A stretch of DNA of 64,000 nucleotides from a virus (IMGVR_UViG_3300011444_000011:30424-94423); one strand, 5' to 3'; positions 229 to 64,000 are shown, counted from the stretch's first letter. Notes: generated by a model not told the origin, from the sequence alone. A program made the numbers and translations.

Positions 229-665
229 AGTCATACTGCCGCGGGCATCTCGACTACCTTGTTGATATTGATATCAAGTCCTATGACGAAGTCTGGGAGC
301 CTAATCAACTTCACAAGGTCGGTCGCGATATCCGTGTCTGTGTGATGGACACGTCGGATGAGATAGTCGGCTTTTATCTGGTCAACGCTCAAGCTGGCCG
401 GTTGGGTCGCTTAATCAAGTTTGCTGTGAAACCGTCCTGGCGTCGTCAAGGCATCGGGACGTTCATGATGGAGAATCTGCTATTGCAATCGTGGGAGCTA
501 ACGACTTTGTCGTGTCTTGTGGACGAAGCCGAGCTTCCGGCCCAACTCTTCCTGAAGGAAAATTACTTCGGATGCCGCCGCCAGTTGAAAGGGCGAAATG
601 GAAACATCAACTACCTCTTCACCCGACCAACCTGCGCCCAGCGTGGTGAAACTCGGGCGAGCTAA
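225..665 (+). CDS. GNAT-family (RimI-like) N-acetyltransferase
   Basis: Motif A FAVKPSWRRQGIG and motif B VDEAELPAQLFLKENYF. Confidence 0.85.
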   Translation: MKSYCRGHLDYLVDIDIKSYDEVWEPNQLHKVGRDIRVCVMDTSDEIVGFYLVNAQAGRLGRLIKFAVKPSWRRQGIGTFMMENLLLQSWELTTLSCLVDEAELPAQLFLKENYFGCRRQLKGRNGNINYLFTRPTCAQRGETRAS

Positions 666-1050
666 TTTCGACCCAAGCAAGTATTCGTTGATTATCCTCA
701 AGCCGGATGCAATGCTAGGTGATTTGTGGGGAGCAATCATGCACCAACTGGCCATCTTCGGTCACAAGCCGATGTATGGCCGGACGTTGGTGATGACTGA
801 TACTGATATCAATTCACACTACGCGGAGCATGTGGGTAAGGATTTCTTTCCACGGCTCGCGGAGTTCATGAAATCTGGCCCGTCATGGGTCATGCTTTCG
901 TTTGGATCGTGGTCAGCAGCACGCGACCTGTGTGCGAACATTCGCAAAGAATACAATACTAAGAACCCTTCAAACCTAATCCATGCCAGCGACTCGCCCG
1001 AAGCGGTTTTCCGCGAAGCGAAATTCTGGTTCCCAGGAATCTTCTCATGA
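598..1050 (+). CDS. ndk: nucleoside diphosphate kinase
   Basis: IILKPDA, HYAEHVGKDFFPRLAEFMKSGP, catalytic NLIHASDS, EAKFWF. Confidence 0.95.
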   Translation: METSTTSSPDQPAPSVVKLGRANFDPSKYSLIILKPDAMLGDLWGAIMHQLAIFGHKPMYGRTLVMTDTDINSHYAEHVGKDFFPRLAEFMKSGPSWVMLSFGSWSAARDLCANIRKEYNTKNPSNLIHASDSPEAVFREAKFWFPGIFS

Positions 1051-1253
1051 CTGTCGAATGGATCGGCCCTCGCGGCTTCCGCCGCTGTACTTTGTCGAGA
1101 GACCTTGCCACTGCGAAACGAGAGTTCGCCGGCATGGCTCCCTACGTCGAGTACAGCGACGGTGGCAAGACGCTGGGATACACGTTGAACCAATCAACGC
1201 CGCAATCACTGGCACCAATGTTTGCGGTGCAACTGCGAAGGGAACGAATATGA
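1047..1253 (+). CDS. hypothetical protein
   Basis: ATGA-coupled on both sides. Confidence 0.6.
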   Translation: MTVEWIGPRGFRRCTLSRDLATAKREFAGMAPYVEYSDGGKTLGYTLNQSTPQSLAPMFAVQLRRERI

Positions 1254-1627
1254 TTGTGCAATCAAGTGACGGGTACTTCTACCAAAATCCCCGTTTCACG
1301 ACGACGATTGCCATTGTCGAGTTCACTGACGATGGATGTTTTCTGTTTCGCAAGGGTAATGTAAGCTGGAAAACCGCCGTATCCGTATTGAGGCCACTTG
1401 GCATCAAAGCCAAGTTAGTCTTTGGAGCGGTGGCTCCGGGTGCCCAGAAGATCATCAACGGCGATTTGATATCAACGACACAATTCACCATCCAACTTAC
1501 CGGCCCGATTCCGACTCCACACAATCATCAAGCCTGCATCCGGGAGCCTGTCTCCGACAACGAAGAAATCATCCGCTTCAAGGTCAAGAAACCGCGTCGC
1601 ACTGTTCCAAGTGATGGCTCACCATGA
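1250..1627 (+). CDS. hypothetical protein; weak similarity to tail protein 52157-52705 C-terminus
   Basis: ATGA coupling; segment AQKIINGDLISTTQFTIQL. Confidence 0.6.
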   Translation: MIVQSSDGYFYQNPRFTTTIAIVEFTDDGCFLFRKGNVSWKTAVSVLRPLGIKAKLVFGAVAPGAQKIINGDLISTTQFTIQLTGPIPTPHNHQACIREPVSDNEEIIRFKVKKPRRTVPSDGSP

Positions 1628-1932
1628 TTGAAGGCGAGACAACGTGGGGTGAGATTGATCTCAATTGGGGTGATATCATGCAACTGCTCCGGGAAAGGTT
1701 GCCGGTCCAAGATGAGATCGGACTTAACCGGGCAGGCGTCATGGTCAAGACACAACGCCCTATGATTGAGGATATCGTCTGTGCCCGTTCGGCCCGTGAT
1801 GATATCCTAATTGCTTATCTGGCTGCTGCCGGCATCATTGTCCGACTAAGCACTTACCGGGAACCAAGATCAATAGACACCGACGCCCACGACAGAATTG
1901 GATTCGGCCAGGGTGGCGAGGGACACAAATAA
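1624..1932 (+). CDS. hypothetical protein
   Basis: coupled ORF in + strand array. Confidence 0.6.
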   Translation: MIEGETTWGEIDLNWGDIMQLLRERLPVQDEIGLNRAGVMVKTQRPMIEDIVCARSARDDILIAYLAAAGIIVRLSTYREPRSIDTDAHDRIGFGQGGEGHK

Positions 1933-5559: not shown

Positions 5560-5694
5560 ATGACTGATACTGATATCAATATCCTTCCATTCCATATCCC
5601 ATCACCCCGTGACGACTGCGATCACAGCGAACAGGATGCCGACAGCTTCCACCACGTTTGTCTGATCTGCGGCGTAGAATGGTACGAGCTATGA
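5560..5694 (+). CDS. small hypothetical protein with CxH..CxxC (not in ORF track)
   Basis: MTDTDINILP...CDH...CLICGVEWYEL*, ATGA-coupled. Confidence 0.45.
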   Translation: MTDTDINILPFHIPSPRDDCDHSEQDADSFHHVCLICGVEWYEL

Positions 5695-7548: not shown

Positions 7549-7859
7549 TATTCGTTCAATTCACACTCGGCATTCTCTTACTCTGTGTCGCCTTCACCGT
7601 ATTCATGGTGGGTGTTATGGGGACTTTGTTCGTTATGGACAACATCGGAAATTGTGCCGATTCCGAGGAACTCGTTGATGAACTCGAAGACCTGCAACAT
7701 CGGTACAACGAGCTTGTCGAAACGATGCTGGCCGTCGAAGAGATTCTTGATCCCGAGACTCCGCCAACACGCGAGGAACTGGAAACGATTGCTGATCTGC
7801 GGGCCGGCAAGTGCAAAGTGATACTGGTATCAGGAGCAGCCGATGCAGTACCAGCCTGA
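7545..7859 (+). CDS. membrane protein with acidic coiled coil
   Basis: N-terminal TM helix; GTGA coupling. Confidence 0.6.
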   Translation: MIFVQFTLGILLLCVAFTVFMVGVMGTLFVMDNIGNCADSEELVDELEDLQHRYNELVETMLAVEEILDPETPPTREELETIADLRAGKCKVILVSGAADAVPA

Positions 7860-8439
7860 TTTCTTTGCCGCGTACAGAAAGTACCTTGATGATCCGGCCG
7901 TAAAGGCCACCCACGCGAGGATGTTCAAAATCTTCGACGATCACTTCGTATGCGGGTCGATGAACCGCGTCGTGGACCTGGGCTGCGGTACGTGCGAGTT
8001 CGCGCGTTACATGGATGAACAAGAGTGGATGAACAGCTACCACGGCTTTGATTTGGATATCAGCCGTGCTGATGTTGACAACATCGACAATGTCAGCATT
8101 ACCTTGAAGGAAGCTGATTTCACGACCGGCGATGTGATCGAGCCGCACGATATGTTCGTGAGCCTCTTCGCGTCCGAGATCATCCTACCGTGGGATGAAC
8201 ACGAGAAGTTGTACGACAAGTGGTTTGAGAAGGGCGCGTCGATTGGATTGGTGGCCGGCTTCCACTATCTGCATTGCCCGCACTTCCCGCAGGTTACTGA
8301 GAAAACTGGCTACACCGTCTACCAGACGACGCCCAGTTCTCCAATGCGCAGCGAACTACGGATGTGCCAGCAGGTGCCGCCGGGAATGTTCGTTGACCCG
8401 TTCGTTGAGGTCTGGAGAGTGATATGGCCGAGCAAATGA
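7843..8439 (+). CDS. class I SAM-dependent methyltransferase
   Basis: VVDLGCGT motif I, YHGFDLD motif II. Confidence 0.8.
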   Translation: MQYQPDFFAAYRKYLDDPAVKATHARMFKIFDDHFVCGSMNRVVDLGCGTCEFARYMDEQEWMNSYHGFDLDISRADVDNIDNVSITLKEADFTTGDVIEPHDMFVSLFASEIILPWDEHEKLYDKWFEKGASIGLVAGFHYLHCPHFPQVTEKTGYTVYQTTPSSPMRSELRMCQQVPPGMFVDPFVEVWRVIWPSK

Positions 8440-8885
8440 AACGACGCGGTTTCTTGGGCATGTTGGCGTCTTTGATACCAGTATCAAAGGTGCTTCTGAC
8501 CATTCCGAAACCCAAACCGAAAGGCCCGAGTCCCGACTTGTCGGGTGCCGCAGCCTGCCGCCGGACAGTGGCTGATCCGGTCGAGTTAGTTCACATTCCG
8601 GTGTCAGAGATCGACTTCCACGCCCATGACTCTTTCGTCCGGCATCCGGTTATGGAACACGTTCACCGACTGGCGGTGGATATGGAAGAACGCGGCATGT
8701 GTATGCCGATTTACGTCAGGAAGATGGCATCCGGCAAGTACGGAGTCATCAACGGAACGCACCGTGCGTGGGCTGCCCGTAGCTTAAAGTGGCCGACGGT
8801 TTTGGCCTACGTCACGCACACGACGGACGCGGAAGCACTGGCCCTATTTATTAACCTCAACTCACAACGGAGCGTGAAATGTTGA
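8436..8885 (+). CDS. ParB/Srx N-terminal-domain protein with twin-arginine-like leader
   Basis: MKRRGFLGMLASL leader; IPVSEID..LAVDMEERGMCMPIYV..YGVINGTHRAWAARSL. Confidence 0.8.
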   Translation: MKRRGFLGMLASLIPVSKVLLTIPKPKPKGPSPDLSGAAACRRTVADPVELVHIPVSEIDFHAHDSFVRHPVMEHVHRLAVDMEERGMCMPIYVRKMASGKYGVINGTHRAWAARSLKWPTVLAYVTHTTDAEALALFINLNSQRSVKC

Positions 8886-11842: not shown

Positions 11843-13759
11843 ATGGGATGCGATTATTGCAACAACACCGGAACAGTGATCCCGTTCGTCGGCGAAGCTC
11901 ACCCGTGCCCACGATGTACGGTTGTCATCAAGTCACCGCCGTTGAACGACCAGCCGAACTTCCAGGCCACGTTGAACGTGAAGTTCGGGCAGGTCTACGA
12001 TGATGCGGCCCACAAGATGGTGCCCGCTTCGACGGCAATCACCGCTGGCGAAGGCATCAAGCGGTTCATGGTGCTGAACAGCATCCTGTATTCCGGCATC
12101 AAACAGACGGTCATCGAGAAGCTGGCCCACCGGCCTATCGAACAGCAGTGGGTTCGCTTCCAGAGCTACTGCCGTTCGGTGCTCCGCGTCGAGATGCCTG
12201 ACGACTACATCAACAAGCCGGATGATGTGCAAGATTTGTTGAAGGCCCGCGTCACGGTTACTTTCGACCCGAGTGTCAAGGTGACTTTCGACCCCGAAGC
12301 CTTGAACGTCCCAGTCTTCCACAAGGATGATCCGCGACTTGCTGAACTGCTGAAGCCGATCGGCGAAAGAGGACGCTTCGAGATCAGCGAGGGGTCGATT
12401 ATCGGCGGTGGCGTCTATATCGCCAATCACGGATTGCCGCCGGGGAAGCTCGTCGCCGTGACGCCGATGCGGAATCCTCTCTTCCAGCATCAACAAGCTG
12501 CTGTCGATGAAATGATGGATCGCTACGATCGGGACGTTGCCCGCATTGATACCAGTCGCACCTACGCTGATACTGGTATCATTCCGGCCCGGTGGGCACA
12601 AGAGAGCGAAGACATACTTCAGGAAAACATGATCGCCGGCTGGCTCGTCAAGCAGCAAGGCAAGGAATGGCCAGAGTGTATGCAGATGCCCGACGGAAGG
12701 GTATTTCAGCGGGGAAAGGGGAAGTCGGAGTACAAGTATCAAGGTCAGCCGCTAACGGTTGCCGACTGCGATATGCTCCGCACGGCCATCGAAGTGATGA
12801 ACAAGGCTGACTGTGACGTGAACTATGAATCGACGCTCGACCCGTCGGAACTCTGGTTCATGGTCTTCCCGCATCTGCCCGGCCCCGCCAGCAGAACGGA
12901 GATCAAGGTTCTCAAGTGCGTGCGTGACGCCCGCGAGAAAAGCTACATCAGCGAAGGCGCGGCATACGATATTGCCAAGCTGCCGTTGATGCACCAAGAA
13001 GCCGCACTACGGCTTGTGGTTCCGGGCATCCAGACGTTTGTGAAGTACACCTGCGAACCGCAGAAAGATATTGCATTCGAGTTGTCGCTGCCACTTGGAG
13101 CGACGGTAATGTGGGAGCACAAGCCCGGCCACAAGTACAAGGTGCTCTGTGAAGTCAAGGATGCAATCGACAAGCGGCTTATAAGCCCCGTTGTAGCAGT
13201 ACGGATCGCCCGTCAGGTCTTCCGTAAGCAGAGGCAAATGCTGACGACGGCATTGGCCGAAGCCGACGGAATGTTGATGGGAACGGGTGCAACGAAGATG
13301 GGTAAGAGCTTGAAGATGGCTGTTGCCAGAGGCAAGCGAAATATGCCGACGATCGAGGACATCCTAAGCCTGATGTCTCTTGCCCAGCAGCGTATCAGCA
13401 CTGATATTCAAATCAAAGATGGTCAGGAAGAAGACCGTCACAAGGTTTGGTTACTGCTCCGGGAAATGCGTGTCAAGCTGCAACGTGTCAATGTGCAGAT
13501 GATGGGTGCGGTGCATCAAAGCGACCGGGTTCCGGCGATGCACAACCCCTCTGAATCGGTACTGAACCAGGAAGTGGTTCAGGGCTTCAACGATGCGTTG
13601 GCATACATGAACGAGAAACGGCCAACCGAGAAGCCGGCATCCGAGTTCATGGCGGGTTACATCCCGGCGTTGAAGCGTATCAACGATGGGCGTCCGCACC
13701 CTGAACATTTTAAGAAACAGGTCGAAGCTGACCCCGATCCCGGAGCCGACTCATGGTGA
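11843..13759 (+). CDS. large mosaic protein: Zn-finger, coat-protein-like, ParB-helical-like and P-loop-like fragments
   Basis: 638 aa; CDYC..CPRC; IIPARWAQESEDILQENMIAGWLV; two IS..A..IA....Q..L repeats; GATKMGKS. Confidence 0.75.
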   Translation: MGCDYCNNTGTVIPFVGEAHPCPRCTVVIKSPPLNDQPNFQATLNVKFGQVYDDAAHKMVPASTAITAGEGIKRFMVLNSILYSGIKQTVIEKLAHRPIEQQWVRFQSYCRSVLRVEMPDDYINKPDDVQDLLKARVTVTFDPSVKVTFDPEALNVPVFHKDDPRLAELLKPIGERGRFEISEGSIIGGGVYIANHGLPPGKLVAVTPMRNPLFQHQQAAVDEMMDRYDRDVARIDTSRTYADTGIIPARWAQESEDILQENMIAGWLVKQQGKEWPECMQMPDGRVFQRGKGKSEYKYQGQPLTVADCDMLRTAIEVMNKADCDVNYESTLDPSELWFMVFPHLPGPASRTEIKVLKCVRDAREKSYISEGAAYDIAKLPLMHQEAALRLVVPGIQTFVKYTCEPQKDIAFELSLPLGATVMWEHKPGHKYKVLCEVKDAIDKRLISPVVAVRIARQVFRKQRQMLTTALAEADGMLMGTGATKMGKSLKMAVARGKRNMPTIEDILSLMSLAQQRISTDIQIKDGQEEDRHKVWLLLREMRVKLQRVNVQMMGAVHQSDRVPAMHNPSESVLNQEVVQGFNDALAYMNEKRPTEKPASEFMAGYIPALKRINDGRPHPEHFKKQVEADPDPGADSW

Positions 13760-14853: not shown

Positions 14854-15246
14854 ATGATTTACGAACAGATCGTAGCCGACACGATGGACAAATCGCTGCT
14901 GTGGCGACAGTGCGAACTCAATGACCGATGGCTTGGGTCGCACCGCTTCTACAAGGTTGTCGTCCGAGAACACTTCTTCTCGGTAACGCTGCATGTCGTA
15001 ACGCGGAACAACCTCTGTTTTGATGTCAATATCAAACGACGGACGTGGATGAAGTTCTTCGACCGTGTCTGGACGCAAGGCCATCTGGACGAATACTCCG
15101 TCTTACAGGAAATGACCAACTATGCTGACTCCAAGCCCGCAGTGCATGACCTGGAGACATACGCCCGCCGCGCTGCACAGGCGGCGACTATTCCGGGATC
15201 AGAAGAATCAGGCACTCGCTGTCCTGATAGTGCTGTGCGACCATGA
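14854..15246 (+). CDS. hypothetical protein
   Basis: ORF in array. Confidence 0.55.
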   Translation: MIYEQIVADTMDKSLLWRQCELNDRWLGSHRFYKVVVREHFFSVTLHVVTRNNLCFDVNIKRRTWMKFFDRVWTQGHLDEYSVLQEMTNYADSKPAVHDLETYARRAAQAATIPGSEESGTRCPDSAVRP

Positions 15247-15697: not shown

Positions 15698-16072
15698 GTG
15701 ATAGTTCACAAGAATTGCCGAATCGCTTTCGGCTGCACACGGATTGTGATACTGGTATCAAAATGGGCAATCAAGATACCGTCGTTCTACTCCTGGCGGC
15801 TGTTCTTGCTGGGCTTGCTGGCCAACATGCAAGAGGCACAGTTCAGCAAGACGGGCTGGCCGGAGCTATGCCCAGTAAGTTGGTCGCTTTGGGGCGGCTG
15901 GCTCGTAATTATGAAACGGGCTGAAGTGCTATCCGAAACAGATTTCTGGATACACAAACTTCGACTCAAAATGATGGTCAATCAACCCGATTACGTTGTG
16001 CCTTGCGAAATGAAGCACGACAGTTTCGGCATCCTAGACGGCAAGTTTGTTGTCGTCGATTACGGGAATTGA
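15698..16072 (+). CDS. small protein-kinase-like fold protein
   Basis: GCTRIV..WAIKIP..N..EA..LCPV..VIMKRA..EMKHDSFG..VVVDYG. Confidence 0.6.
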   Translation: MIVHKNCRIAFGCTRIVILVSKWAIKIPSFYSWRLFLLGLLANMQEAQFSKTGWPELCPVSWSLWGGWLVIMKRAEVLSETDFWIHKLRLKMMVNQPDYVVPCEMKHDSFGILDGKFVVVDYGN

Positions 16073-19284: not shown

Positions 19285-19490
19285 CGCCAGACAGAGTAGC
19301 TGCCAGACGTAACGTAATCTATGCTCCGCATGGCGGCGTCGATGAACAGAAGCAGCAGTTGCTTGAGTTTTACGAGGCCGTGCTGACCGAAATCTCTGAT
19401 GGTACGCCCGATGCCAAGAATCTGGCATCCGCGGCGTTGGGCAAGTTACCAAAGTGGACCGTTTCTGATACTGGTATCAAACCATGCTAG
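19281..19490 (+). CDS. hypothetical protein, tandem paralog of 19000-19284
   Basis: shared motif as for 19000-19284; AGGAG SD. Confidence 0.65.
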   Translation: MTPDRVAARRNVIYAPHGGVDEQKQQLLEFYEAVLTEISDGTPDAKNLASAALGKLPKWTVSDTGIKPC

Positions 19491-20258: not shown

Positions 20259-20585
20259 ATGAAGCGAGGGTTGTCAGAACTGTTGCACCGGCTGCGGCGA
20301 ACAACGAGACGGCACAAGTGGACGCTGCTGCCGATGTTGGACAAGCCGGGATCGGGGCTCCCCAAGCTATACAGCCTACGGGATGATTGGGGACGGTGCC
20401 CGCTGGAAGCGACGACACCGCCGCGAGAAAAGTCATTTAGAGGATTGAGTCAGAGAGCCTTGTTCCTGGGTATCCCTTACGTCGAGGCCATCGTTGACGC
20501 AGCGGACGGCCGTTTCAGAAGCAAAGAGCATGATGTTACCAATTTACGGGCGTTGCGCGATGCAATGCTGGCTGCCATCGGTTAA
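20259..20585 (+). CDS. hypothetical protein, paralog family A
   Basis: HKW..CPLEA..IPYVEAIVDAAD..NLRALRDAML. Confidence 0.65.
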   Translation: MKRGLSELLHRLRRTTRRHKWTLLPMLDKPGSGLPKLYSLRDDWGRCPLEATTPPREKSFRGLSQRALFLGIPYVEAIVDAADGRFRSKEHDVTNLRALRDAMLAAIG

Positions 20586-20620
20586 TGCGGTATCGGTTAA
20601 TGCGGTATCGGTTAATGCGG
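20577..20620. repeat. 15-bp tandem repeat x3 (ATCGGTTAATGCGGT)
   Basis: read directly; first copy contains the TAA stop of the upstream gene. Confidence 0.9.
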
Positions 20621-46476: not shown

Positions 46477-46520
46477 GGTGGGTTGGTATTGATATCAATA
46501 TCAACCCACCATTTTCTCTT
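46477..46520 (+). terminator. intrinsic terminator containing palindrome copies
   Basis: GGTGGGTTGGTATTGA/TCAATATCAACCCACC then ATTTTCTCTT. Confidence 0.7.
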
Positions 46521-50700: not shown

Positions 50701-52154
50701 ACGGGCCTCCGCTCAACGTCACGTTCACGACGGGACTTGATAAATTTCGTGCTGAAGTTCAGAAACAGTTGGATGCACAGCCATTCGCAGCTTCATTGAA
50801 GTTGACGATTGATTCCGCCAACACTCAAGCACTTCAGAACGAAATCGCTAAATTGGCTAAGACGGCCAACGCGGGCCTGGAGAAGCAAACTGCTGTCCCA
50901 GGTGCAATTGATGCTTTTGATACCAGTATCAAAGCGATCAATGAAGGCATCACCCAGTTCAAGAATCAACTGAATGATGCGGCTGGCAAGGCCAAGCTGT
51001 CCGAACTAATAAATCCTCTACCGATCTTCGGTGGGACGTTCGGCGGTAACGTCAACAACCTCAAGGCAATCGACGAGGAACAGAAGAAAGCGGTTGCCAA
51101 CCTTGACGCGACTCAAGCGAAGATCAAGGATGTTTTCACTGATCCTACTAGCTTCAATGAGTTTGGACGGCTGACGGCTGACGCCTTCAAGAAGATTGAG
51201 GTTCAACTTCAACCGTTCAAGAATCTGATTGAGAAAGCCGCTGCGCCAGATGCTTCGGCAACTGACAAAGCCTTCGGTCAAATCTCGCAACGCATCGTTG
51301 ATGCGACGAAGCAGGCTTCGATACTCAAGCAGACCTTCTCTGATATATCGGCAGGAATCGAGGCCGGTGGAGAGGCTCAAAAGAAATTGAACGATCTTAG
51401 TACGCCTGACAAGCAGACTAAGATACAAACACCAAATGATGTGATTGACAAGATCACACCCGATAAGAATGCTCTCCAGTCGAAAGAACAACTGCGTGAT
51501 ATCGAGAAGGAATTGCAAAACGCAATCGACACCACTGGGAAAGATGCCCAGGCCAGTGCTGATTCGCAAATCCAATCCACTCAAAATGTCACGTCTTCAG
51601 TTGAAGTTTTGAACGGAGCAATTGTTAGTACCGAATTCCCTGTTGCTCAATTGACCGAGAGATTTGGCTTACTCGGACAAGACGCTCTTGTCGCTTCCGA
51701 AGATACTGTCTCTGGTCTTAATTTGATTGGTATTACCGCTATCGAACAGATCGGCGGGGTTGCTGCTCTTACAGAAGCCCTGTTCAGAATGGCCGAAGCA
51801 TCTGCTGCGGCAAGTGGTGGCGGTGGTGGTGGCGGGGGTGAGTTCGCTTCTCGTGGTGCATTCATACAACACTTTGCTCAAGGTGGCTTGGCTCGCGGTA
51901 GAGATACCATCCCTGCCATGCTGTCGCCCGGTGAAGTTGTTGTAGCGCCTGGCCCGAGTCGCAAGTTCTTCTCCCAATTGATGGCGATGAACGCGGGAGT
52001 TCAACCATCATTTCGTTCTAATGGTGGTACAGTCGGGGATACGTTCGGTGATATTAACGTCAATATCCACTCGAACGGTCCAAGTGACATCAACGCCCGA
52101 GCTATCGCACAGGGCATTCAGCGCGAATTGCGCAGAGGCAGCATCAGGAGATAA
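47763..52154 (+). CDS. tape measure protein
   Basis: 1463 aa, Ala/Gln/Ser-rich helical, TP901-like core, TM region, C-terminal FAQGG..DTIPAMLSPGEVVV. Confidence 0.92.
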   Translation: MADEIVSQLALDASKVLTAFAELQAAMNQQSQTIQNLAQGIKTFNSAEAGMAPAIDSANKALSAQAQIAKDTANQLRAVFTGRIDSTATVTEIKKVNDAFAALERTLTSTKASPTQVQNILGNLKGAFTGQDAQIQSALIAAKTAADNLGSSNAASTLKINQAAIKGKADALAQAEAQALSKASESSSIASAAQLSSRFNTSGADSGALNRFQASVQNFQQVAQKSGLSGSQLSGVINNLGQTFSGAQGRVAQAALQVQKFGGALQGVQTTASGFGANLQSLVKVFTFQQALQGLGALQNAFSSSIGNAITFERAIAQVSTISGEGDKNIDTLAVKVNLLANEFGKNNVETATGLYHAFSNQVGDSAQTVQFFSEALKFSKAAVTDVSSSVDALSAVQNAYGQSSSSASHNADVLFRTIDLGRVSAKELGDSFGRILPIAAQLGVSLEEVSAAISTATVQGVKFQDAQTQILNLLVAALKPTGDLKKQMDSLGFASTNAGIAAEGFIGFFSKIAEGSKTSEELAKLFPNIRGLRGELSLFGDSGKRLTDFLQQTTDSAGAAQKAFDTIQFSNAEKVSNELNRIQNQITQGFGRDVVAVLATVNDAFGGVADKVVFLGEALALAFGSAVFLGAANQLLSILVSVGGAFGVATTAATGFGVGLLAVGAIAVAAYKLLQPPDFASKFDENVAKMQISAAKLATDTANQVRDANKGVQDSLNTQVQSLLQVSQQKQAALNNAFSQAASIEAATTSNFKTEVNQRLRAYTQFLSAIEDLQNKAATHAVEVATKQAQFTQSIQDTRFQNKFDNATASQQTTLLNQQINKLLTKSSVSQAAGNTTFAEQEIEKAKELALQFEKITGNRTLTSKVEQAYTAFLAAQTDQLNKQVAVAKELQSTNTANVEEARTQLELALNLDGQLQKIGKEKGFNSPEALAVITQIQAALTKADAAQGKLNAGLGNVGKNASSSQIQTAIDALKKVTNGPPLNVTFTTGLDKFRAEVQKQLDAQPFAASLKLTIDSANTQALQNEIAKLAKTANAGLEKQTAVPGAIDAFDTSIKAINEGITQFKNQLNDAAGKAKLSELINPLPIFGGTFGGNVNNLKAIDEEQKKAVANLDATQAKIKDVFTDPTSFNEFGRLTADAFKKIEVQLQPFKNLIEKAAAPDASATDKAFGQISQRIVDATKQASILKQTFSDISAGIEAGGEAQKKLNDLSTPDKQTKIQTPNDVIDKITPDKNALQSKEQLRDIEKELQNAIDTTGKDAQASADSQIQSTQNVTSSVEVLNGAIVSTEFPVAQLTERFGLLGQDALVASEDTVSGLNLIGITAIEQIGGVAALTEALFRMAEASAAASGGGGGGGGEFASRGAFIQHFAQGGLARGRDTIPAMLSPGEVVVAPGPSRKFFSQLMAMNAGVQPSFRSNGGTVGDTFGDINVNIHSNGPSDINARAIAQGIQRELRRGSIRR

Positions 52155-52705: not shown

Positions 52706-52734
52706 TCGAAGTCCTGGTTGATATCAGTATCAAA

Positions 52735-52783: not shown

Positions 52784-53323
52784 ATGGGATATCCTACACA
52801 ACCACACATTGACGACGTAAAGACAAAGGCAGAAGCGGCTTCAACGGCTGCGGCTGCGGTCAAGGCAGCATGGAACGCACTTGTCACTGCCAATGAGACA
52901 CTGGCACAAGCAACCGCTGATGCGTTGACAGCGGACATTGAATTGAAGGCTGCGGCTTTCTATTCTGTTACATCATCGAACGTAGCCGATATGACTAATG
53001 CTCAATCGGAAATTGATGCCGAGCGGCATAACGTACCGAATAGTGGTCTTTTTGGTGACAACTCTGGACCATTGCCATACGTTCCCAATGTCACTGCTGC
53101 CTCGCTTGCAGATATTGAAGTTGAGTATTTCAATCTTGTGGCAAGCCGAATGGATCGCTTAACAACTCTCTTAGCCGCCAAGACTGCCGCCGATACGGCC
53201 GTTACCGCTGCCACGAGCGATCAAGCAACCAAAGATTCCGATTGGGTGACTGCAATCGGTGTGCATGATTCGGCAACAGGTGATCTGGCCACTGCAATGG
53301 CTACACTTCGATCCGACATTTGA
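52784..53323 (+). CDS. Ala/Thr-rich helical virion protein
   Basis: GAGGG SD. Confidence 0.6.
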   Translation: MGYPTQPHIDDVKTKAEAASTAAAAVKAAWNALVTANETLAQATADALTADIELKAAAFYSVTSSNVADMTNAQSEIDAERHNVPNSGLFGDNSGPLPYVPNVTAASLADIEVEYFNLVASRMDRLTTLLAAKTAADTAVTAATSDQATKDSDWVTAIGVHDSATGDLATAMATLRSDI

Positions 53324-53334
53324 TATCAGTATCA

Positions 53335-53367
53335 AACCGGGCAGGTTCGCCTGCCCGGTTCTTTCTT
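53335..53367 (+). terminator. intrinsic terminator immediately after palindrome
   Basis: AACCGGGCAGG-TTCG-CCTGCCCGGTT + CTTTC. Confidence 0.7.
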
Positions 53368-55462: not shown

Positions 55463-56842
55463 ATGGCTCTAAGAGTAACGCAGCAGAGTGTTGATGTTCT
55501 TAGCGAAGCCACAGGCGGTAAGATTTGCGTTACCCAGTTCTACATCGAAGTGCTGGGTGCGGCTGCCACGGCTGTCTCTGCTTCAAACACTCTCGCTCTT
55601 ACTGATACTGCAACTCCGGCCACGGACCATCCGCGGTCATTGACTGACACGTTGACACTGACTGACACACTGACAAATGCGGATGACTTGTCCGCATCGA
55701 ACGGTCTATTGTTCCTAGACAGTGTGTCAGTTCTAGTCGATCATGTTCGAGCGGTTTCTGATGCGCTCGGCATTTCCGACTCGGTTGCCAAGTTCAATGT
55801 CCATACGTTGTCGGTCAGTCAGTCGTTAGGAATCACCGATGTTGCTGTGGAAGCCGATGTCCACACTTTCAGTTTGTCTCATGTATTGGGCCTGATTGAT
55901 ACTGCAATCGGTGATGACGGTTTGTCGCCTTCAATCAATGATGCGCTTGACTTTGCCCAGAGTTTGACTTGCAATATCAAATCGTTGGATATTCTCGACA
56001 CGCTCTCGCTTGTCAGTGCTGCTCCGCAACCGCCTCTGTCTGTCAGTAGCGTACTGGCCTTTACGCATGTTGCTACCTCGGGAACGAAAACTGAATCGGT
56101 CAGTAGCGTACTGGCCTTTAGCGATCAAGCGGTTGACAAGACTCGGCAAATCGTTGCTCATACGTTAGCATTCAGTCAGCAGGTCGTTCACAACGTCCAT
56201 CAATTGAGCGTTGCCAATGCCGTCCTCTTTCAGCAGACTGCCGCCACGGTAAAGAGCACGAACGTCGCCAGCTTCATGAGTTTGACCGATCAGGTCAAGC
56301 GGGCGCTTACGCTGCCGAGAACCGTTTCATCGGCTATCGAGTTTGTCCAGTCGGTTGAACTGTTCATCGACCGGAACGGCGTGCTGTGTAACTACTCACC
56401 ATTCATCGGCACAGGCCCGCATACGTTTACGGCTACGCCGCCTACTATCACGCCCAGCACACTAACTCTGTTCTGGCCGATCGTCACACCAACACTGACG
56501 GTTGTTCTCCGCAACCCTGACTTCGGCAACAAGATTTCGTTCAACGCGAATCGAATCAACCGAAAGAGCCGTGGCGGAACTAAGCAGATTTTCAGAAAGG
56601 CCACTTGGCCTAAGTTCCGCACGTTGAACATGGACGTTTCCATGCTTGACCAGGACCAAATCGACGACTTCATAACCTTCCTGAACACGACCATCGGGTT
56701 GCAGGTCGGCTTGAAAGACCAAGACGGGTTCATGTGGAAGGGAGTTGTCATGACTCCTGAAACGCCAATCACTCAAATTGGTGGGACTGTTTCATGCCCC
56801 AATTATGCTACGTCATTCCAGTTTGAAGGGGAATTGATATGA
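55463..56842 (+). CDS. tail protein with repetitive S/T/V-rich shaft and distal-tail-like C domain
   Basis: repeats like SVS..L.(L/F)(T/S)D; C-terminal domain resembles 56839-57225. Confidence 0.65.
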   Translation: MALRVTQQSVDVLSEATGGKICVTQFYIEVLGAAATAVSASNTLALTDTATPATDHPRSLTDTLTLTDTLTNADDLSASNGLLFLDSVSVLVDHVRAVSDALGISDSVAKFNVHTLSVSQSLGITDVAVEADVHTFSLSHVLGLIDTAIGDDGLSPSINDALDFAQSLTCNIKSLDILDTLSLVSAAPQPPLSVSSVLAFTHVATSGTKTESVSSVLAFSDQAVDKTRQIVAHTLAFSQQVVHNVHQLSVANAVLFQQTAATVKSTNVASFMSLTDQVKRALTLPRTVSSAIEFVQSVELFIDRNGVLCNYSPFIGTGPHTFTATPPTITPSTLTLFWPIVTPTLTVVLRNPDFGNKISFNANRINRKSRGGTKQIFRKATWPKFRTLNMDVSMLDQDQIDDFITFLNTTIGLQVGLKDQDGFMWKGVVMTPETPITQIGGTVSCPNYATSFQFEGELI

Positions 56843-57225
56843 GTATCAAATTGGAAGCACCGTGGCCGTCGCCATCAGTTGTTACGATTCTGCCTAATCC
56901 GCAATTCTCTGACGTGCAAGATACTGACCAAACAGTAAGCCGCCAGCGTTCGATGAACAACAAGGTGTACACCTACGCGAAAGTTGGCGGCACGTCTAAG
57001 TTGACGTACACGTTCACACTCACACGGATGAAAAGCCTTGAGCTTCAAGCATTCGTTGAGACTATGATTGACCAGCAAGTCAGGCTAACCAATCATAAGA
57101 ACGAAATCTGGTTAGTGTTCATTGATAACAACCCATTTGAAATCAGTCAGGCTCGCAGGGCCGCTGGCCCATCCGGCCGCGAGTTTGACAGCGTTAGCAT
57201 TAGCTTCGAGGGAGTAAAGCCATGA
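56839..57225 (+). CDS. distal-tail-like protein
   Basis: LPNPQFSD..RQRSMNN..LTYTF..FEG; position before tail tip. Confidence 0.55.
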   Translation: MSIKLEAPWPSPSVVTILPNPQFSDVQDTDQTVSRQRSMNNKVYTYAKVGGTSKLTYTFTLTRMKSLELQAFVETMIDQQVRLTNHKNEIWLVFIDNNPFEISQARRAAGPSGREFDSVSISFEGVKP

Positions 57226-60200
57226 GAACCCTATCGTCCAATGCACTGACCCAGATCAACACGGCTATGGGCACGAAGCCCATGATCTTGTTGGAAATCG
57301 GATGGGTCGATTTGACACCAGTATCAAAATACGCCGACAAGACTGTCGGAGCGTATCTTGGGAAAATCCTGTCCATCGGCACGATCGACGAAATCATCAA
57401 GATCGCTGGCGGCTCGAACTCTGGACAGGTCAGTGTCACGTTGGACGACATTGACGGCACGTTGAAGGATATCATCGACAACCATGATATCCACAAGCGG
57501 CCCGTCTGGATTTACCAATACTTCGAAGGCATGAGCACGAACGATAAGTTTCTGCTCATGAGGGGTGAAATCAGCAGCCCAATCACCTGGGATGAAGGTG
57601 CCCGCTCGCTTGCATTCGACGTGCTCACGAAGATCGAATCCACCGAGATCGGTTTCAGCATTGAAGAAGGCCAATTCCCACTCTTGCCAATCGACTTGGT
57701 TGGCAAGGCGTGGCCGTTGGCGTTTGGGTCGGTAGTCAATGTTCCGGCTCTGAAGATCACCAGCCCGCGTGAAGGAATCCTGGCCGACGGCTTCGGCATC
57801 CACGACTACACTCTCCGTCGCCGCATTCAGCTTGCGAACAACATCTGTTGCCCGGCTAATTCGATCATCGGTTATGACACCAATTTCGGACTACAACCGG
57901 GCAAGGCTACTGCCAACACGAACCCTAACACCGGGTTGCCGTCTAATCAGGCGAGTGGTTTCAGCACTACACCGAACTTCATCACGACACCTGATCCTGG
58001 CTTCAGTTACGCAAATCCGTTCGGATATCAAATCATCGACGGCACCGGCCAGATTGGCGGCGGTGGTGGAGTTGTCAACGGAACTAGCGCTGGAACCGGG
58101 ACCGGCGTGTCATCGGTTCCGGTCTATGGTCCCGATCCTGCCTGCATCAAGAACCGTTGCGAAACGATTGAGCAGTTGAATTATGAATTGACGCAACAGC
58201 AGAAATTCGAGTTCACTTCGTTTCGTGTTTTCAACGGCCAACAGTTCGAGCAGGGTAAGCGGATCACCTTGTCTATCGGAGGCGCTTACGTTGTCGGGTC
58301 ATTCTCCGGCGACGTGTTCACCGTTCAGCAATACATCCACAAAGATGCTGTTGACAAAGACTTGGCGAAAGGCAACAACTACACTGACCGGCCGACGCAA
58401 GCCGAAATTGATTTTATACTCAATCAGGTGCCGGGTCGTACCCAAATCTTGACGAGCTTCGGTAGCGAAAATCCGGCTGATGCCGTCGCCGCCTACCATG
58501 CCTCGCAAGATGCTGGCCCGGCATCCATTTTGAGTAGCTGCACGACTCCGGCTGGAACCTTCGTCAGCCTGACTGACTGCGAATCTCAAAGTCTGGATTC
58601 TTTGAATCTGTATCCATCCGCGAGCTTCCAGTGGGTCAACGCTGGTTCGAAGGTGACATACGCATACGATGAAGAAGTCGTATACATCGCCAACATTCTA
58701 CCCTCGACTGTCCGTTGCGTGACGGCCTATCGAACCCTGGATGACGGTCGCCGCGTCTTATTGGTCGTGCCACCGGATTATTATACGGTTCGCACTACCG
58801 ACTACACGGCGTATCACGTCGTCGAGATCGTGATGAATCGTGCCTTGAGTCTTCAAGCGACTGGCTGGGAAGACCAAATCTATGTGACCCTTGATTCGTC
58901 TGTCGGCCCGAACACCGTTGATATCATTCAATGGTTGATTCAGACCTACACGACTTTTGATATTGATAGCACTTCGTTCGCTGCGGTTCGGGCGAAAGTT
59001 GACAATTACCCGTCACACTTTGCGTTGCTTGATCGCAAGAACATCATGGCGGCGCTTGATGAAATCTCAATGCAGGCTCGCTGTGCGATGTTCCTGCGAG
59101 ATAACAAGTTCTACATCAAGTATCTGTCCGCATCGCCGACAACGGTTGACACGATCACCGAAGATCACATCAACCAGAACTCGCTACGGATAACCAACAG
59201 CACGACCGAAGAGTTGGTCACGAAGATGGTGGTGACGTGGAACGACGATCTGGCAATTTCGCCGAAGACGTTGATCGTCCGAAACAACATCAACAAGTAT
59301 GGAACGATCGAACAGACGTTCGACTTCTACATCTACAATATGTACTCGCTCGTTGAGAAGAGCGCTTTGTTCTGGTTGATACGAAAATCAAATACGTGGC
59401 GTCGAATGTCGTTCAAGACTCCGCTGGTCAAACTGGCGCTTGAGTCTTATGACGACGTGTTGTTCACTGTTCCCGATTTGTCAAGCTCCAACTTCAAGGG
59501 GCAAGTCGAAGGGGCGGTCTTCAATGCTGACGATAACTCGATTAGCTTTGATGTCTGGACTCCGATTCTGGCTGGCACACGGGTTGAATACCCGTGGGCT
59601 TATCCGGGAACGGTAAATGCCAGCCAACTTTGGCCACCTGATATTGTTGCTCAAGGGCCGGGCTTCAGCGTAGTCGCTCCAGTCGGCCATCCGTTGAGCA
59701 GCACGACGTTTCCGAATAATGTGCCCGATGACGCCACGGCTCCGAACTTTCAAGTGACGAACTGTGGCGGTCCACCGACACCTAATACCAATTTCTGTTG
59801 TTCATCCACGGCAACGGTACAACCGTCGGAGTTCTGTCAAACCCAGCATCCCCGCAGGATTGACGACGCCAACGATGTGAAGCCCTCGCCGCGTACTGAT
59901 ATCAATTGCCCAGGTGCTGTCAACCTGGGCAAAGACCCGGTCTTCGCTCAACTGCCACCGAAGTTTGCAAGGTTGCAGAAGCAAGTCAACCAAAGTCAAT
60001 CGCAAGCCGCAAGCGCTAAGGCAGCCGCCTTGAACGCTGGCGGTGGCGCGGGCGGCGGTGGTGGTCTTGGAAATCAGGATGACAGTCAGCAGAAAAGCCG
60101 AACTGATCCTTTGGACAAAGTGCCCAGGGTGCCGAAAAACAATGCAACAGGCGACGGTAAGGGCGCTGGTGGCCCGACGCCGAAACCAACCTGTACGACA

Positions 60201-60829: not shown

Positions 60830-60861
60830 GGCCCGGTTTGATACCAATATCAAACCGGGCC
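60830..60861. terminator. hairpin centred on palindrome
   Basis: GGCCCGGTTTGATA-CCAA-TATCAAACCGGGCC. Confidence 0.6.
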
Positions 60862-60876: not shown

Positions 60877-61158
60877 ATGGGACGTTATCCAGTTGTCCAA
60901 GTGGTGTGGCATGATGCTTTCAGCAAGGATGCGTGGAAGTCTGTGGAAGATTTAAGAGCACTAGATGCTGGACACGCTACGATCGACACGGTCGGTTATC
61001 TTATCCGCCGAGACAAGAAGTGCATCATAGTCTCGCATTCTATATCGCGCGAAGATGAAGCACACGAAGACGAGGCGTGCTGTTCAATCTGTATCCCGCT
61101 TGGGATGGTAGTATCAATGAAAGTTCTGGTGAAAGCATGTGCCCGCTCGAAGCATTAA
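60877..61158 (+). CDS. hypothetical protein
   Basis: VVWHDA..W..TVGYLI..IP.GMV pattern common in phages. Confidence 0.65.
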   Translation: MGRYPVVQVVWHDAFSKDAWKSVEDLRALDAGHATIDTVGYLIRRDKKCIIVSHSISREDEAHEDEACCSICIPLGMVVSMKVLVKACARSKH

Positions 61159-61535
61159 GACGTGGAATCGACACGCCAGAAATCCGTGAGGCAGCAGCCC
61201 AGATGCGGAAGAATCAGCAACAGATGTTCGAGATGGCCGAGAAGCATAATAAGAGCTTCGGTCGCGCACGGATGTTGCCTAATGGGTGCGTAGAGTACGC
61301 GAAGAAGGGGCACGAACCGCCGCCCGATCTGGACGGTTATCAACGTGATCCCGGAAATGCGTGGAAGTTCCTGCCGTTGTGGCCTAAGTGCAAGAAGCGT
61401 ATCCAGACGCAGAGCATGAAGCAGTGTGGTGCTCTAGCCATACTGACTGTCTGTGCGAACGGAGACTGCCCGCTCAAGCAACAGCAAGTGACATTCGCCC
61501 AGTGCAGTTCATGTGAGCACAAGGTCGTGGAATAA
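61137..61535 (+). CDS. Cys-rich hypothetical protein
   Basis: C..C..C..CP..CSSC. Confidence 0.6.
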   Translation: MCPLEALRRGIDTPEIREAAAQMRKNQQQMFEMAEKHNKSFGRARMLPNGCVEYAKKGHEPPPDLDGYQRDPGNAWKFLPLWPKCKKRIQTQSMKQCGALAILTVCANGDCPLKQQQVTFAQCSSCEHKVVE

Positions 61536-61539
61536 AACA

Positions 61540-61571
61540 AGCCCGGTTTGATGGCAATATCAAACCGGGCT
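61540..61571. terminator. likely bidirectional terminator between convergent blocks, centred on palindrome variant
   Basis: AGCCCGGTTTGAT/ATCAAACCGGGCT. Confidence 0.65.
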
Positions 61572-61576
61572 CTCGA

Positions 61577-62263
61577 TTAGTATTTGTTAATATCCAGAGG
61601 CTCGATCATTTTGGTCCCTGGCACGAGTGGCGTGTATGCAGTACACATACGTCTGTAGACCTCGGCTGTGGCGATGCAGTCTTGGAGAGCATCGTGAGCT
61701 TTGAGGTTGGTCACACTATATAGGCTGCCAAGATAAGGTAGGCCAACCTTAGGATGTGGAACCCGTTCGATGTGTTGATCCGCCCGATCATTCATATAGA
61801 GGGCACTTGCTTGGGTGTCTCGGTAATGGAAATGGAAGTAGTAATCGAACGATTGCCGACCCATCCATTCGATGATGAAATCGCGATCAAATAACCAGTT
61901 CGACGCCAGCGGCGAAATCTTCTTCTTCTCCGGCAAGCCAAGGCGCTCGAACCACTCGATGAACATATCGACGCCCTTCCAGGGATCGACAGCCCGCAAC
62001 TGGAGTTCGGTCAGGTTAGCCTTGCCGACTCGCAGCGCTTTGTAGTCCACTGTCTCCGGGCGCTTAAGCTTCATATCGAGATAGAAAGGCATCACGCCTT
62101 TCAGCGGTTTGATATTAGAATCAAGTGGCAGTACAGCAATCTGCCAGATGTCGTGAACGAGCGGGTCAACCCCGGTCGTCTCTACGTCAACCGCGCACAG
62201 CAAGTTTCCGTTGAGATGGATCATTGATGAGTGCGGGCTGCGTCCCTGGCCGAATCGGCTCAT
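61577..62263 (-). CDS. DEDDh 3'-5' exonuclease (DnaQ-like)
   Basis: AVDVETTG, N..FD..F, YRDT, AHDALQD. Confidence 0.88.
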   Translation of the reverse strand: MSRFGQGRSPHSSMIHLNGNLLCAVDVETTGVDPLVHDIWQIAVLPLDSNIKPLKGVMPFYLDMKLKRPETVDYKALRVGKANLTELQLRAVDPWKGVDMFIEWFERLGLPEKKKISPLASNWLFDRDFIIEWMGRQSFDYYFHFHYRDTQASALYMNDRADQHIERVPHPKVGLPYLGSLYSVTNLKAHDALQDCIATAEVYRRMCTAYTPLVPGTKMIEPLDINKY

Positions 62264-62820
62264 GTACGCACCTGACCTGACAGCACACGCATCTGACTGT
62301 GCAGGTCAGCGATCGTTCCTTCGTTCTCGATGATCCCGTCCCATCCGTCGTCAGGCACTTCCTGCAACGCATTGTCGGCGATCGTATCGAGCACGACGGC
62401 TCGACTGTTCTTGACCTTGTACACCTTGCCGCCTAGATCACGAATCGCATCAACTTCATTTTGATATCGAACATCAGAAACGATCACAACCTTGACGTTG
62501 GTCTGGCCTCGGAGAGCCGCTTGCACCCAGGTCAATGGGTACACGTCACGGAGTTTGTTTCCGACTTCAACCCAAATCTGAACCGGCGTCTTGTTCAGCG
62601 CAGGCAGAACAATCTGCCGATCGGCCGGACAATTCTCGTAATGGATGGCCCGCTTCAAGCCTGCCCACCCGTAAAGGTCGAAGCAGACTTCTTTGAGTTT
62701 GCTGGCGAAACTGACGTGGACCGTACTGATACCCAACATCCGAAGCTCCGTATTAAGGAACTTAGCACAGGTATCTTTTCCGACGCGACTGCGATGGCCG
62801 AAGCCTACAACTGGTATCAT
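62260..62820 (-). CDS. deoxynucleoside monophosphate kinase
   Basis: GFGHRSRVGKDT P-loop, SFASKLK, VIVSDVRYQNE, IIENEGT. Confidence 0.88.
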   Translation of the reverse strand: MIPVVGFGHRSRVGKDTCAKFLNTELRMLGISTVHVSFASKLKEVCFDLYGWAGLKRAIHYENCPADRQIVLPALNKTPVQIWVEVGNKLRDVYPLTWVQAALRGQTNVKVVIVSDVRYQNEVDAIRDLGGKVYKVKNSRAVVLDTIADNALQEVPDDGWDGIIENEGTIADLHSQMRVLSGQVRT

Positions 62821-64000
62821 GTTTCTTCACCTTCCACGTAAAGTGTTTGGTCCTGTACGACGTATCTCGGGGCGAGCAACTCGTCAGGCGTTGGCGGTGT
62901 ATACGAAATGTTGGCCACGAAAAACTGGCCCGCGAACTTCATCAAGCGTCCGCGAGGGTGCCTGATTGGGAGTTCTTTCCCGAAGCGAATCTTCGACCAA
63001 TAGCTTACGCGGTTCGAGTCAACTTGTTCGATGAACTTGTCGTAGATATCAGTGAACTTGATTGCTTGACCTGGAGCGTAGTGGCAATGTTCGATAATGT
63101 AGCGTTCGAGTTCGGATTGGTTTTGTTCTTGGGCCTGTCGTTTGTCTTCGGTATCAATTACCGGAACGAACAGACGGCCGTTTGATTGTGGTATCTCGTA
63201 CTTCAGAATCATCGCCAGAAAGTCCGGTGCTTCCTTACGCAGTTTCTCTAGCAATTCATCCCGCGGGATGGTCTGCTCATGCAACTGCACATAGCACATT
63301 GTGATTCTGGTATCACCTGGAAAGATCGGGCAGTATTCAAACTCATTGCCCGTCTGAATCCAGTGGGTGCTGTTCGGACTGTTGTAAGGCGTCTTGCCCT
63401 TCCGATGGATGGACAACATCAGCGATGTCACCCAATCCTTTATCCGGTTGTATGCCAACGATTTGTTCGCCCTCAAATCCGTTTCCTCGATGACGCAGAG
63501 GACGGCGTTTTCGAGTTCCGCGTTGAACCCCGCTTGACTGATAAGTGCGGCGTCCGCGCGTGCGTACCCCGTTGTCATCAGCAAACGCAGCGACTCGTGC
63601 AGAATCGACTTTCCGCTGCCCTGCGGCCCATAGAGGAATAAGTAGGGTAACGGCTGAAGCGGGTATTGAATGAGCGAGGCAATCCAGCATCGTAGGTACT
63701 CGCCACCAGTGGTGATGAAATTTTCCTGACACCACTTGTTCATTTTGATTGCAATATCAAGTCCTGATCCGCAGTGGTTCAAGACCTTCATCCAAGTGTC
63801 GTATTTCAGATTGTCAATATCAGACGAGGGGACGTAGGCCAACTGTGCGGCATTTCGATTCCACGTTCGATCGCCCGGATACTCCGGTGCGAACGGCCGG
63901 TTCACGAGTGTCCACTTCTTCATCACGCTTGAGCCGACGACTAGACCTATGTCTTTCGGATCAACACCTTGGGCCGTTAGGACAACCCTGACGTGCTCCA
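62817..64000 (-). CDS. SF3/D5-like primase-helicase, C-terminal part (frame stays open to window edge)
   Basis: YLFLYGPQGSGKS Walker A, CVIEE Walker B, IKDWVT..KGK, DTRI. Confidence 0.85.
   Translation of the reverse strand, partial: EHVRVVLTAQGVDPKDIGLVVGSSVMKKWTLVNRPFAPEYPGDRTWNRNAAQLAYVPSSDIDNLKYDTWMKVLNHCGSGLDIAIKMNKWCQENFITTGGEYLRCWIASLIQYPLQPLPYLFLYGPQGSGKSILHESLRLLMTTGYARADAALISQAGFNAELENAVLCVIEETDLRANKSLAYNRIKDWVTSLMLSIHRKGKTPYNSPNSTHWIQTGNEFEYCPIFPGDTRITMCYVQLHEQTIPRDELLEKLRKEAPDFLAMILKYEIPQSNGRLFVPVIDTEDKRQAQEQNQSELERYIIEHCHYAPGQAIKFTDIYDKFIEQVDSNRVSYWSKIRFGKELPIRHPRGRLMKFAGQFFVANISYTPPTPDELLAPRYVVQDQTLYVEGEET

Follow-up and report, generated by a model that had tools for sequence, protein, structure and literature searches.

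The described systems closest to the element considered here are the KorB-OB system of the IncP-1 plasmid RK2 (PMC11790492) and the Noc-NBS system of the Bacillus subtilis chromosome. KorB is a ParB-family helix-turn-helix (HTH) protein with CTP motifs, whose short palindrome is dispersed over the mobile genome, at some promoters as well as far away from them, and which combines autoregulation with a possible long-range action by sliding; the reference list of the same article points to 12 KorB binding sites on RK2. Noc, which originated by duplication as an orphan ParB paralog and functions without ParA, uses dozens of dispersed 14-16-bp palindromes, with a specificity set by few HTH residues. 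It tethers the chromosome to the membrane, timing cell division. Among phages, a dispersed palindrome has been reported without a reader in the Cluster O mycobacteriophages, in which more than 30 dyad-symmetric copies of a 17-bp sequence, many of them intergenic and about a third in genes, are found throughout a lytic-looking genome that encodes a ParB-like domain protein and no ParA or integrase; both reader and function were left open (PMC4351075). The Cluster A stoperators, as far as they are treated in the same paper, comprise dozens of repressor-type sites in short intergenic gaps; these sites lack symmetry, follow the direction of transcription and are recognised by the immunity repressor that temperate phages encode. 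Orphan ParB folds abound in phages, but little is known of their roles and DNA targets, of which a recent survey names none (PMC12704722); in our searches of the literature we came across no account of phage ParBs with sites across the whole genome. Here, we analysed a dispersed near-palindrome in a 64,000-nucleotide stretch of viral DNA (IMGVR_UViG_3300011444_000011:30424-94423, hereafter the window), which corresponds to bases 30424-94423 of a 94,423-bp record (97% complete, no end repeats), together with its candidate reader, the ParB-family protein ParB2.

The window contains 27 exact copies of the 14-mer TGATAYYRRTATCA, all of them at the places given in an initial annotation (each 14-mer begins 1 base downstream of the 16-mer start listed there), and no match was obtained in 100 dinucleotide shuffles of the window. 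The same annotation had listed 12 near copies, 11 of which were recovered at up to 2 mismatches; the one at 13895 was not. Extension of the scan to the whole record gave 40 copies, far above chance. The aligned copies yielded the 16-bp consensus TTGATAY-TG/CA-RTATCAA. The centre was TG or CA in 40/40 copies and TA or CG in none, so the site is a near-palindrome and not a perfect palindrome. When 16-mer sites were counted genome-wide, 25 were exact, 23 had one mismatch and 27 had two, giving 75 in total. The two centre orientations (TG versus CA, 16:24) did not form significant blocks along the genome (P = 0.14), and even spacing of the copies was not supported (coefficient of variation of 0.85 versus 0.97 at random, P = 0.1-0.3). 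A 51-kb ENA metagenome contig (sample ERZ27267737; L081) was 100% identical to window positions 25455-47122 over the 21,668 bases fetched, and the sequence with its motif copies is thus reproduced in a second assembly. The signal had been proposed to act at the DNA level, and codon-preserving shuffles bore this out: 21 copies lie within genes, whereas 500 shuffles gave 1.3 on average and never more than 6. The in-gene copies occupy two reading frames, and the third is unused because the motif would read TGA in it. Copies touching intergenic DNA accounted for 19 of the 40 (48%), with intergenic DNA making up 12% of the genome, and 22% of the copies were located within 30 nt upstream of a start codon, compared with 6% at random. 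These leader copies typically sit directly 5' of the ribosome-binding site (RBS). The sites are real and strongly selected on DNA, and the motif very probably serves as the docking site of some dimeric DNA-binding protein.

When 20 kb was searched at the nucleotide level against 50,697 phage records, no match was obtained, and the best cultured TerL matches were approximately 27% identical, indicating that the phage is novel. The TerL search returned 80 IMG/VR loci with 37-53% identity; the motif of this phage occurred in none of them, and many have a dispersed palindrome of their own. The first k-mer peaks in many relatives proved to be local tandem arrays and not dispersed repeats, and they were replaced by a dispersed-palindrome scan; larger short-period arrays (6-22 bp) were seen in the TerL-locus flanks of many relatives. 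The comparison set consisted of 18 genomes, all of uncultured phages and including this phage (G000), and most of them bear their own dispersed palindrome of the GAT(T/A)-N4/5-(A/T)ATC kind. Scored in this way, G000 has 45 copies of the GATA-N4-TATC type. The palindrome of G001 is TGATTTA-S-TAAATCA (40 exact copies, 63 by the core TGATT-N5-AATCA), with C and G about equally often as the central base, and those of G002 and G008 are AGTTA-N-TAACT (55-58 copies) and TGGTA-N4-TACCA (24 copies), respectively. Variants of GATT-N4/5-AATC were present in 11-30 copies in G006, G007, G010, G011, G016 and G017. Lower numbers were found for GATA-N4-TATC in G014 (5-7), GATT-type palindromes in G018 and G019 (4-5), TGACA-type palindromes in G012 and G015 (3-4) and CTTAA-N5-TTAAG in G013 (6); G004 and G005 had no dispersed palindrome. 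The G001 and G002 copies also exceeded codon-preserving shuffles and were enriched between genes, close to ribosome-binding sites (site-placement values of 45% in G001 and 28% in G002). When IMG/VR and a collection with a single genome for each prokaryote species were scanned for the exact 16-mer, single-copy contigs only were found among the matches listed, with no close relative, no host signal and no bacterial or archaeal genome carrying more than one copy. A helicase-anchored search led chiefly to a more distant sister group, in which motifs were lacking. The genes common to the palindrome clade number only about 40.

The initial annotation had ascribed the sites to a full-length ParB with an HTH encoded at 24257-25423. 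A ParB-family reader is still the best candidate; the gene named is not, and better ones, ParB2 and ParB1, lie outside the window. For the protein encoded at 24257-25423, Pfam returned ParB_N only at E = 0.033, below the cut-off, and detected no HTH, while the ParB-like families of PHROGs matched residues 42-172 only. The protein carries an LRGNRR box. Its homologues in relatives are weak and sporadic, and most of the relatives with dispersed palindromes do not have the gene. Of the two degenerate palindrome copies that had been described upstream of it, one (24199-24208) proved to be a distinct 10-mer, TGATTTGATA, and the other does contain the right half-site, with a degenerate left half (around 24222). 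The genome encodes two such ParB_N proteins without a DNA-binding domain. ParB1 (genome 2073-3053) and ParB2 (genome 8600-9460, 21.8 kb upstream of the window) both have ParB_N and HTH_ParB domains by Pfam, at E = 5.6e-10 and E = 2.6e-13, respectively, in ParB2. The closest solved relatives of both are Spo0J/ParB, Noc and KorB, and for ParB2 the best of them (ParB, Spo0J and Noc) scored E = 1e-16 to 1e-19. ParB2 keeps GHRR (GxRR) and ENxxR, with G83, R85, R86, E118, N119 and R122 invariant in nine ParB2 orthologues; the nucleotide pocket of ParB1 is degenerate (DGLQR, TNLCR). Both genes are accompanied by the palindrome, one site ending 24 nt before the parB1 start, with a terminator-like site after its stop, and one ending 17 nt before the parB2 start. 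For a conserved gene adjoining parB1 (genome 3158-3892), the only resemblance was to viral families that are uncharacterised (Pam3_Gp34-like). ParA had been reported as missing from the window, and it is missing from the whole 97%-complete genome as well, in which no AAA_31 (ParA-type) match was found at E <= 1; this phage thus lacks the cognate ParA of a ParABS system.

Both ParB paralogs are present in 18/18 genomes, and across them the half-site tracks change in the ParB2 recognition helix. The helix reads SRGW in 12 of the 18 genomes, which have a GATT-type palindrome (8), few TGACA-type copies (2) or none (2). The arginine was lost in six genomes, at no fewer than four separate places on the ParB2 tree (SGGW in G000, SFGW in G001, SVTW in G002, SGSW in G008, STAW in G013 and STTW in G014), and in all but one of these the half-site is a different one (GATA twice, AGTTA, GGTA and CTTAA). 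In the alignment, the helix arginine falls on the R of GKSR in Caulobacter ParB, and it presumably corresponds to R149 of B. subtilis ParB, an HTH residue essential for specific parS binding (PMC5731820). No pattern with the half-site was observed for the ParB1 helix in the same genomes. The clade offers a natural specificity series, in which at least 8 different half-sites go together with differing ParB2 recognition helices. In 9/22 cases, the start of parB1 or parB2 has a site no more than 80 bp away, compared with 1.2 expected under a uniform distribution and 3.6 when intergenic bias is allowed for threefold (P = 0.004). We favour the reading of the motif as KorB/Noc-like loading or operator sites for the orphan ParB2, with our confidence in it evenly balanced.

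Several observations weigh against ParB2 as the reader. The co-variation rests on 18 related genomes with 4-6 independent changes, and G001 is an exception, as it lost the arginine and kept a GATT-type arm. The proximity test lost significance at a fivefold intergenic bias (P = 0.11). Both ParBs, with intact helices, are encoded by G004 and G005, in which no dispersed palindrome was found, and palindromes are likewise lacking from a wider sister group in which the two-ParB module is the same; the presence of the ParBs alone is therefore not sufficient for dispersal. Relatives with ParB and without the motif had been named beforehand as evidence that would speak against such a reader, and this holds in part: G004 and G005 lack a palindrome, yet they bear approximately 11-12 copies of a related 9-mer that flank promoters. 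For the site of a symmetric dimer, an unvarying TG/CA centre is unusual, and an avoidance of palindromic hexamers described below explains it only in part. Finally, most of the small genes are unannotated, so an unrecognised, fast-evolving DNA-binding protein may be involved.

This last point leads to the alternative that the docking sites are real and are read by another protein (a small phage regulator, a stoperator-like repressor, a temporal regulator or a host factor), ParB being merely one of the regulated genes. We regard this as rather unlikely. It is favoured by the lack of family assignment for most of the approximately 175 genes, by the relatives that keep both ParBs without palindromes and by the Cluster O precedent, in which a palindrome in more than 30 copies has no assigned reader despite a ParB-like protein (PMC4351075). 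The checked genes among the roughly 40 shared by all relatives argue otherwise, since ParB2 and ParB1 were the only HTH proteins, and the only recognisable sequence-specific DNA binders, among them. A presence/absence screen gave no accessory gene that tracks the palindromes, and neither the phage methyltransferase, nor the two ParB_N-only genes, nor a weak-HTH gene (genome 18241-18756) did so across relatives. The sole candidate from that screen, a 152-aa Cys-rich protein (window 61077-61535), was found by jackhmmer in all nine genomes searched and does not discriminate. A host factor would not account for a different motif in each phage lineage, nor does it agree with the maximum of one copy per bacterial or archaeal genome among the matches listed.

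Returning to ParB2, we infer binding, CTP clamping and a biological output from sequence as follows. The motif would be the place on double-stranded DNA at which a phage-encoded protein docks as a symmetric dimer, and, much as KorB does on OB and Noc on NBS, ParB2 dimers would recognise the two TTGATA arms. The dimers could then close as CTP clamps, and ParB2 would occupy, or spread from, 40-75 sites. Since about half of the sites lie in short leaders 5' of the RBS, those of both parB genes included, genome-wide transcriptional control together with autoregulation would be the likeliest output, with coating of the whole genome as a possible extension; the segregation or shielding also put forward in the initial annotation would be a conjecture.

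A system of this kind would share with KorB-OB the ParB-family HTH protein with CTP motifs, the short palindrome dispersed over a mobile genome at promoters and far from them, and the autoregulation, with long-range action by sliding as a possibility for the phage. Unlike RK2, with the 12 sites attributed to it, the phage has 40-75 sites, about half of them inside genes, and it has no ParA/IncC partner and no identified KorA homologue. It is also a phage and not a plasmid, with no integrase found. The likeness to Noc-NBS concerns a duplicated orphan paralog predicted to work without ParA, dozens of dispersed palindromes of similar length and specificity set by few HTH residues; the phage differs in showing no N-terminal membrane helix or comparable role and in having far more sites per kilobase. 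The resemblance to ParB-parS partition lies in the 16-bp palindrome and in a ParB_N plus HTH protein with GxRR and ENxxR; here, however, ParA is missing, the half-site is unrelated to parS and the sites per kilobase are an order of magnitude more numerous. Cluster O shows the same overall layout in a phage that is unrelated in lineage and sequence; in the present case, co-variation points to a specific ParB paralog. The dozens of sites in short gaps along the genome recall stoperators, from which they differ in having arms that are symmetric apart from the centre and both centre orientations on one coding strand; no tyrosine integrase or other lysogeny genes were found. If the ParB2 reading is true, the use of many loading sites on one replicon, as by KorB and Noc, would extend to virulent-type phages, and a large class of phage proteins that lack annotation would gain a recognition code.

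The placement of some copies in hairpins raises the possibility that the motif acts in RNA, where hairpins would terminate, process, stabilise or translationally gate polycistronic transcripts. Approximately 8 copies form the tips of long GC-rich terminator-like hairpins (-21 to -26 kcal/mol), some of which precede T runs, and many sites lie directly 5' of ribosome-binding sites. Moreover, the terminator-like hairpin after the same structural gene bears the lineage's own palindrome in G000, G001 and G002 (window 46483-46504, near 33273 of G001 (L211) and near 10939 of G002 (L225)), with 10-13 bp of additional stem in G001 and G002. The bare 16-mer, however, folds as RNA at only -1.9 kcal/mol, and about 65 of the 75 copies have no flanking stem. 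The stable stem-loop with a U run that characterises intrinsic terminators is thus not a general property of the sites, GC-rich extensions being confined to about 8 of them. The arm sequence is invariant and not co-varying, half of the copies are within genes, and both centre orientations are found on the coding strand of a genome transcribed almost wholly one way. We consider an action in RNA highly improbable. Selfish or recombinogenic mini-palindromes (REP/MITE-like elements, homing or recombination hotspots) would likewise be high-copy, dispersed and often intergenic. Each copy here is just 16 bp, however, and the in-gene copies are written in frame through codon choice. The aligned copies have no conserved flanks and no target-site duplications, and outside this genome the 16-mer was seen only as single copies in IMG/VR and genome-collection contigs among the matches listed. 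REP/MITE elements would be expected to show a conserved unit extending past the core, chiefly outside genes and common to the host or other replicons, a pattern to which these sites do not conform; we regard such an origin as scarcely credible.

The genome also encodes an N6/N4 DNA methyltransferase (window 21188-21919, Pfam E = 4e-20), and the motif could mark targets of sequence-directed DNA modification or anti-restriction, set by this enzyme or by one activated by a ParB_N-only protein. Phage ParBs without a DNA-binding domain activate T-dioxygenases (PMC13229309), two ParB_N proteins of this type are present, and an extreme avoidance of palindromic hexamers shows strong restriction pressure. 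Nevertheless, no Tet/JBP dioxygenase was found in the genome, nor were a C5 methyltransferase, a MethyltransfD12 (D12-class) methyltransferase or a tyrosine integrase. The methyltransferase and ParB_N-only genes are absent from most palindrome-bearing relatives (methyltransferase homologues occurred in G005 and G019 only), and 16 bp far exceeds the length of an ordinary methyltransferase site. A modification target is improbable on these grounds. The RNA-hairpin, mobile-element and modification-target explanations all fit worse than reading by ParB2.

The avoidance referred to above was pronounced: 30/64 palindromic hexamers were absent from the genome and 42/64 occurred at most 2 times, compared with 26/4,032 absent among non-palindromic hexamers. 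AGATCT, CACGTG, CAGCTG and CCCGGG had 0 copies, and GATATC, which is part of the motif, was the commonest palindromic hexamer, with 98 copies. In relatives, the absent hexamers ranged from 1/64 (G005) to 20/64 (G006). A perfect 16-bp palindrome would centre on ACCGGT, ATCGAT, ACTAGT or ATTAAT, whose observed versus expected counts were 0 versus 27, 0 versus 39, 0 versus 4 and 1 versus 8, respectively, so this avoidance explains part of the TG/CA centre rule. Mixed centres such as ACCGAT were absent from the sites, though ACCGAT is not avoided genome-wide, and their lack is thus not accounted for in this way.

A second motif, TGATTTGATA (motif A), occurs in 8 copies in G000, compared with 0.12 expected. 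It flanks the primase-parB1 divergent region and is also found in a 1.1-kb non-coding region (genome 16760-17921). Its 3' half is the palindrome half-site, with A where relatives have T, which suggests that motif A and the palindrome may share a reader or co-evolve. The counterpart of motif A, GATTTGATT, occurs in G004, G005, G001, G006 and G010, often in inverted pairs around promoters. In G004 and G005 it has about 11-12 copies (fewer than 1.4 expected, 0.2 in G005), among them several inverted pairs approximately 80-100 bp apart around sigma70-like promoters (TTGAC..., then TGgTATACT), including those upstream of parB1 and parB2. The form (T)GATTTGAT(T/A) constitutes a second, conserved motif flanking sigma70-type promoters. 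A two-paralog ParB circuit found only in this phage clade is conceivable, though doubtful: ParB2 CTP clamps would load at the lineage-specific palindromes and cover the whole viral chromosome, and ParB1 or another factor would read (T)GATTTGAT(T/A) and stop or lock the clamps at promoters. If true, duplicated ParBs would provide KorB/KorA-like long-range silencing or genome shielding in a lytic phage under heavy restriction pressure.

Table 1. Sites, second-motif copies and ParB_N genes (window coordinates unless marked as genome).
Feature	Position	Strand	Context
Exact site	262-277	.	Inside gene 210-665
Exact 14-mer core	797-812	.	Within a gene
Exact core	5564-5579	.	Intergenic, 5 nt past stop codon
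Exact core	7818-7833	.	9 nt upstream of start at 7843
ParB_N-only protein, 153 aa	8424-8885	+	
Exact 16-mer	8472-8487	.	5' part of ParB_N-only gene 8424-8885
Exact core	12567-12582	.	Within 638-aa gene 11843-13759
1-mismatch copy	15020-15035	.	
Exact core	15746-15761	.	Intergenic, abuts next start
Exact core	19465-19480	.	3 nt upstream of start at 19484
Exact 16-mer	20627-20642	.	Intergenic, directly after 15-nt tandem repeat
Exact 16-mer	21852-21867	.	3' part of N6/N4 DNA methyltransferase gene
1-mismatch copy	23503-23518	.	Large non-coding region 22859-24257
Motif A TGATTTGATA	24199-24208	+	About 40 nt downstream of promoter-like site 24130-24157, upstream of gene 24257
Divergent ParB N-domain protein, no detectable HTH	24257-25423	+	Poorly conserved in relatives
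Motif A TGATTTGATA	25575-25584	+	Directly upstream of gene 25598
Exact core	25737-25752	.	Inside gene 25598-25855
Exact core	26413-26428	.	13 nt upstream of ATG 26442, 5' of RBS
Exact core, leader	26777-26792	.	38 nt after promoter-like site 26711-26739; 15 nt before ATG 26808
Exact 16-mer	27193-27208	.	Inside gene 27084-27518
Exact core	28022-28037	.	11 nt upstream of start at 28049
1-mismatch copy	29783-29798	.	
Three-site cluster (30640 degenerate; 30669, 30694 exact)	30640-30709	.	Gap upstream of conserved gene 30917-31558
Exact 16-mer	32123-32138	.	
Exact 16-mer	33307-33322	.	Intergenic, 3 nt past stop codon
Two copies overlapping, 6-bp shift	39591-39612	.	Within longer AACCCGG...CCGGGTT palindrome, gap 39569-39681
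1-mismatch copy	40340-40355	.	
Exact 16-mer	44063-44078	.	Within structural-module gene
Overlapping pair	46483-46504	.	Tip of terminator-like hairpin GGTGGG...CCCACC, then T run
Exact 16-mer	50917-50932	.	Inside tape-measure gene 47763-52154
Exact 16-mer	52718-52733	.	12 nt past stop at 52705
Exact 16-mer	53320-53335	.	Spans gene end
1-mismatch copy	56834-56849	.	Spans gene junction
1-mismatch copy	57312-57327	.	
Exact 16-mer	60838-60853	.	Tip of 13-bp-stem GC-rich hairpin after tail-fibre gene, -21 kcal/mol as RNA
2-mismatch copy	61548-61563	.	Tip of similar hairpin, between convergent genes
Motif A TGATTTGATA, other copies	58026-58035; genome 1606, 2005, 17173, 17215, 17466		

Nearly all genes of the phage are on the + strand, with a short minus-strand replication module spanning the contig ends, and ARAGORN detected no tRNA or tmRNA gene in the window. 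Strong plus-strand promoter-like sites were noted in window 22800-31000 (TTGACT-N16-TAYRAT at 24130, 27644, 28805 and 29223, and TTGACC-N18-TATGAT at 30010). Promoter-like sites numbered 22, compared with 10 in shuffles, and only some of them are followed by the palindrome. Two three-unit tandem arrays were present in non-coding DNA, one of approximately 15-nt units at about 20570-20620, which abuts site 20627, and one of approximately 17-nt units at about 22900-22960. Finally, a dNMP kinase, a nucleoside 2-deoxyribosyltransferase-like protein and a NUDIX hydrolase are encoded at window 62260-62820 and genome 15502-15972 and 30151-30651; this set hints at altered nucleotide metabolism or, possibly, a non-canonical base.

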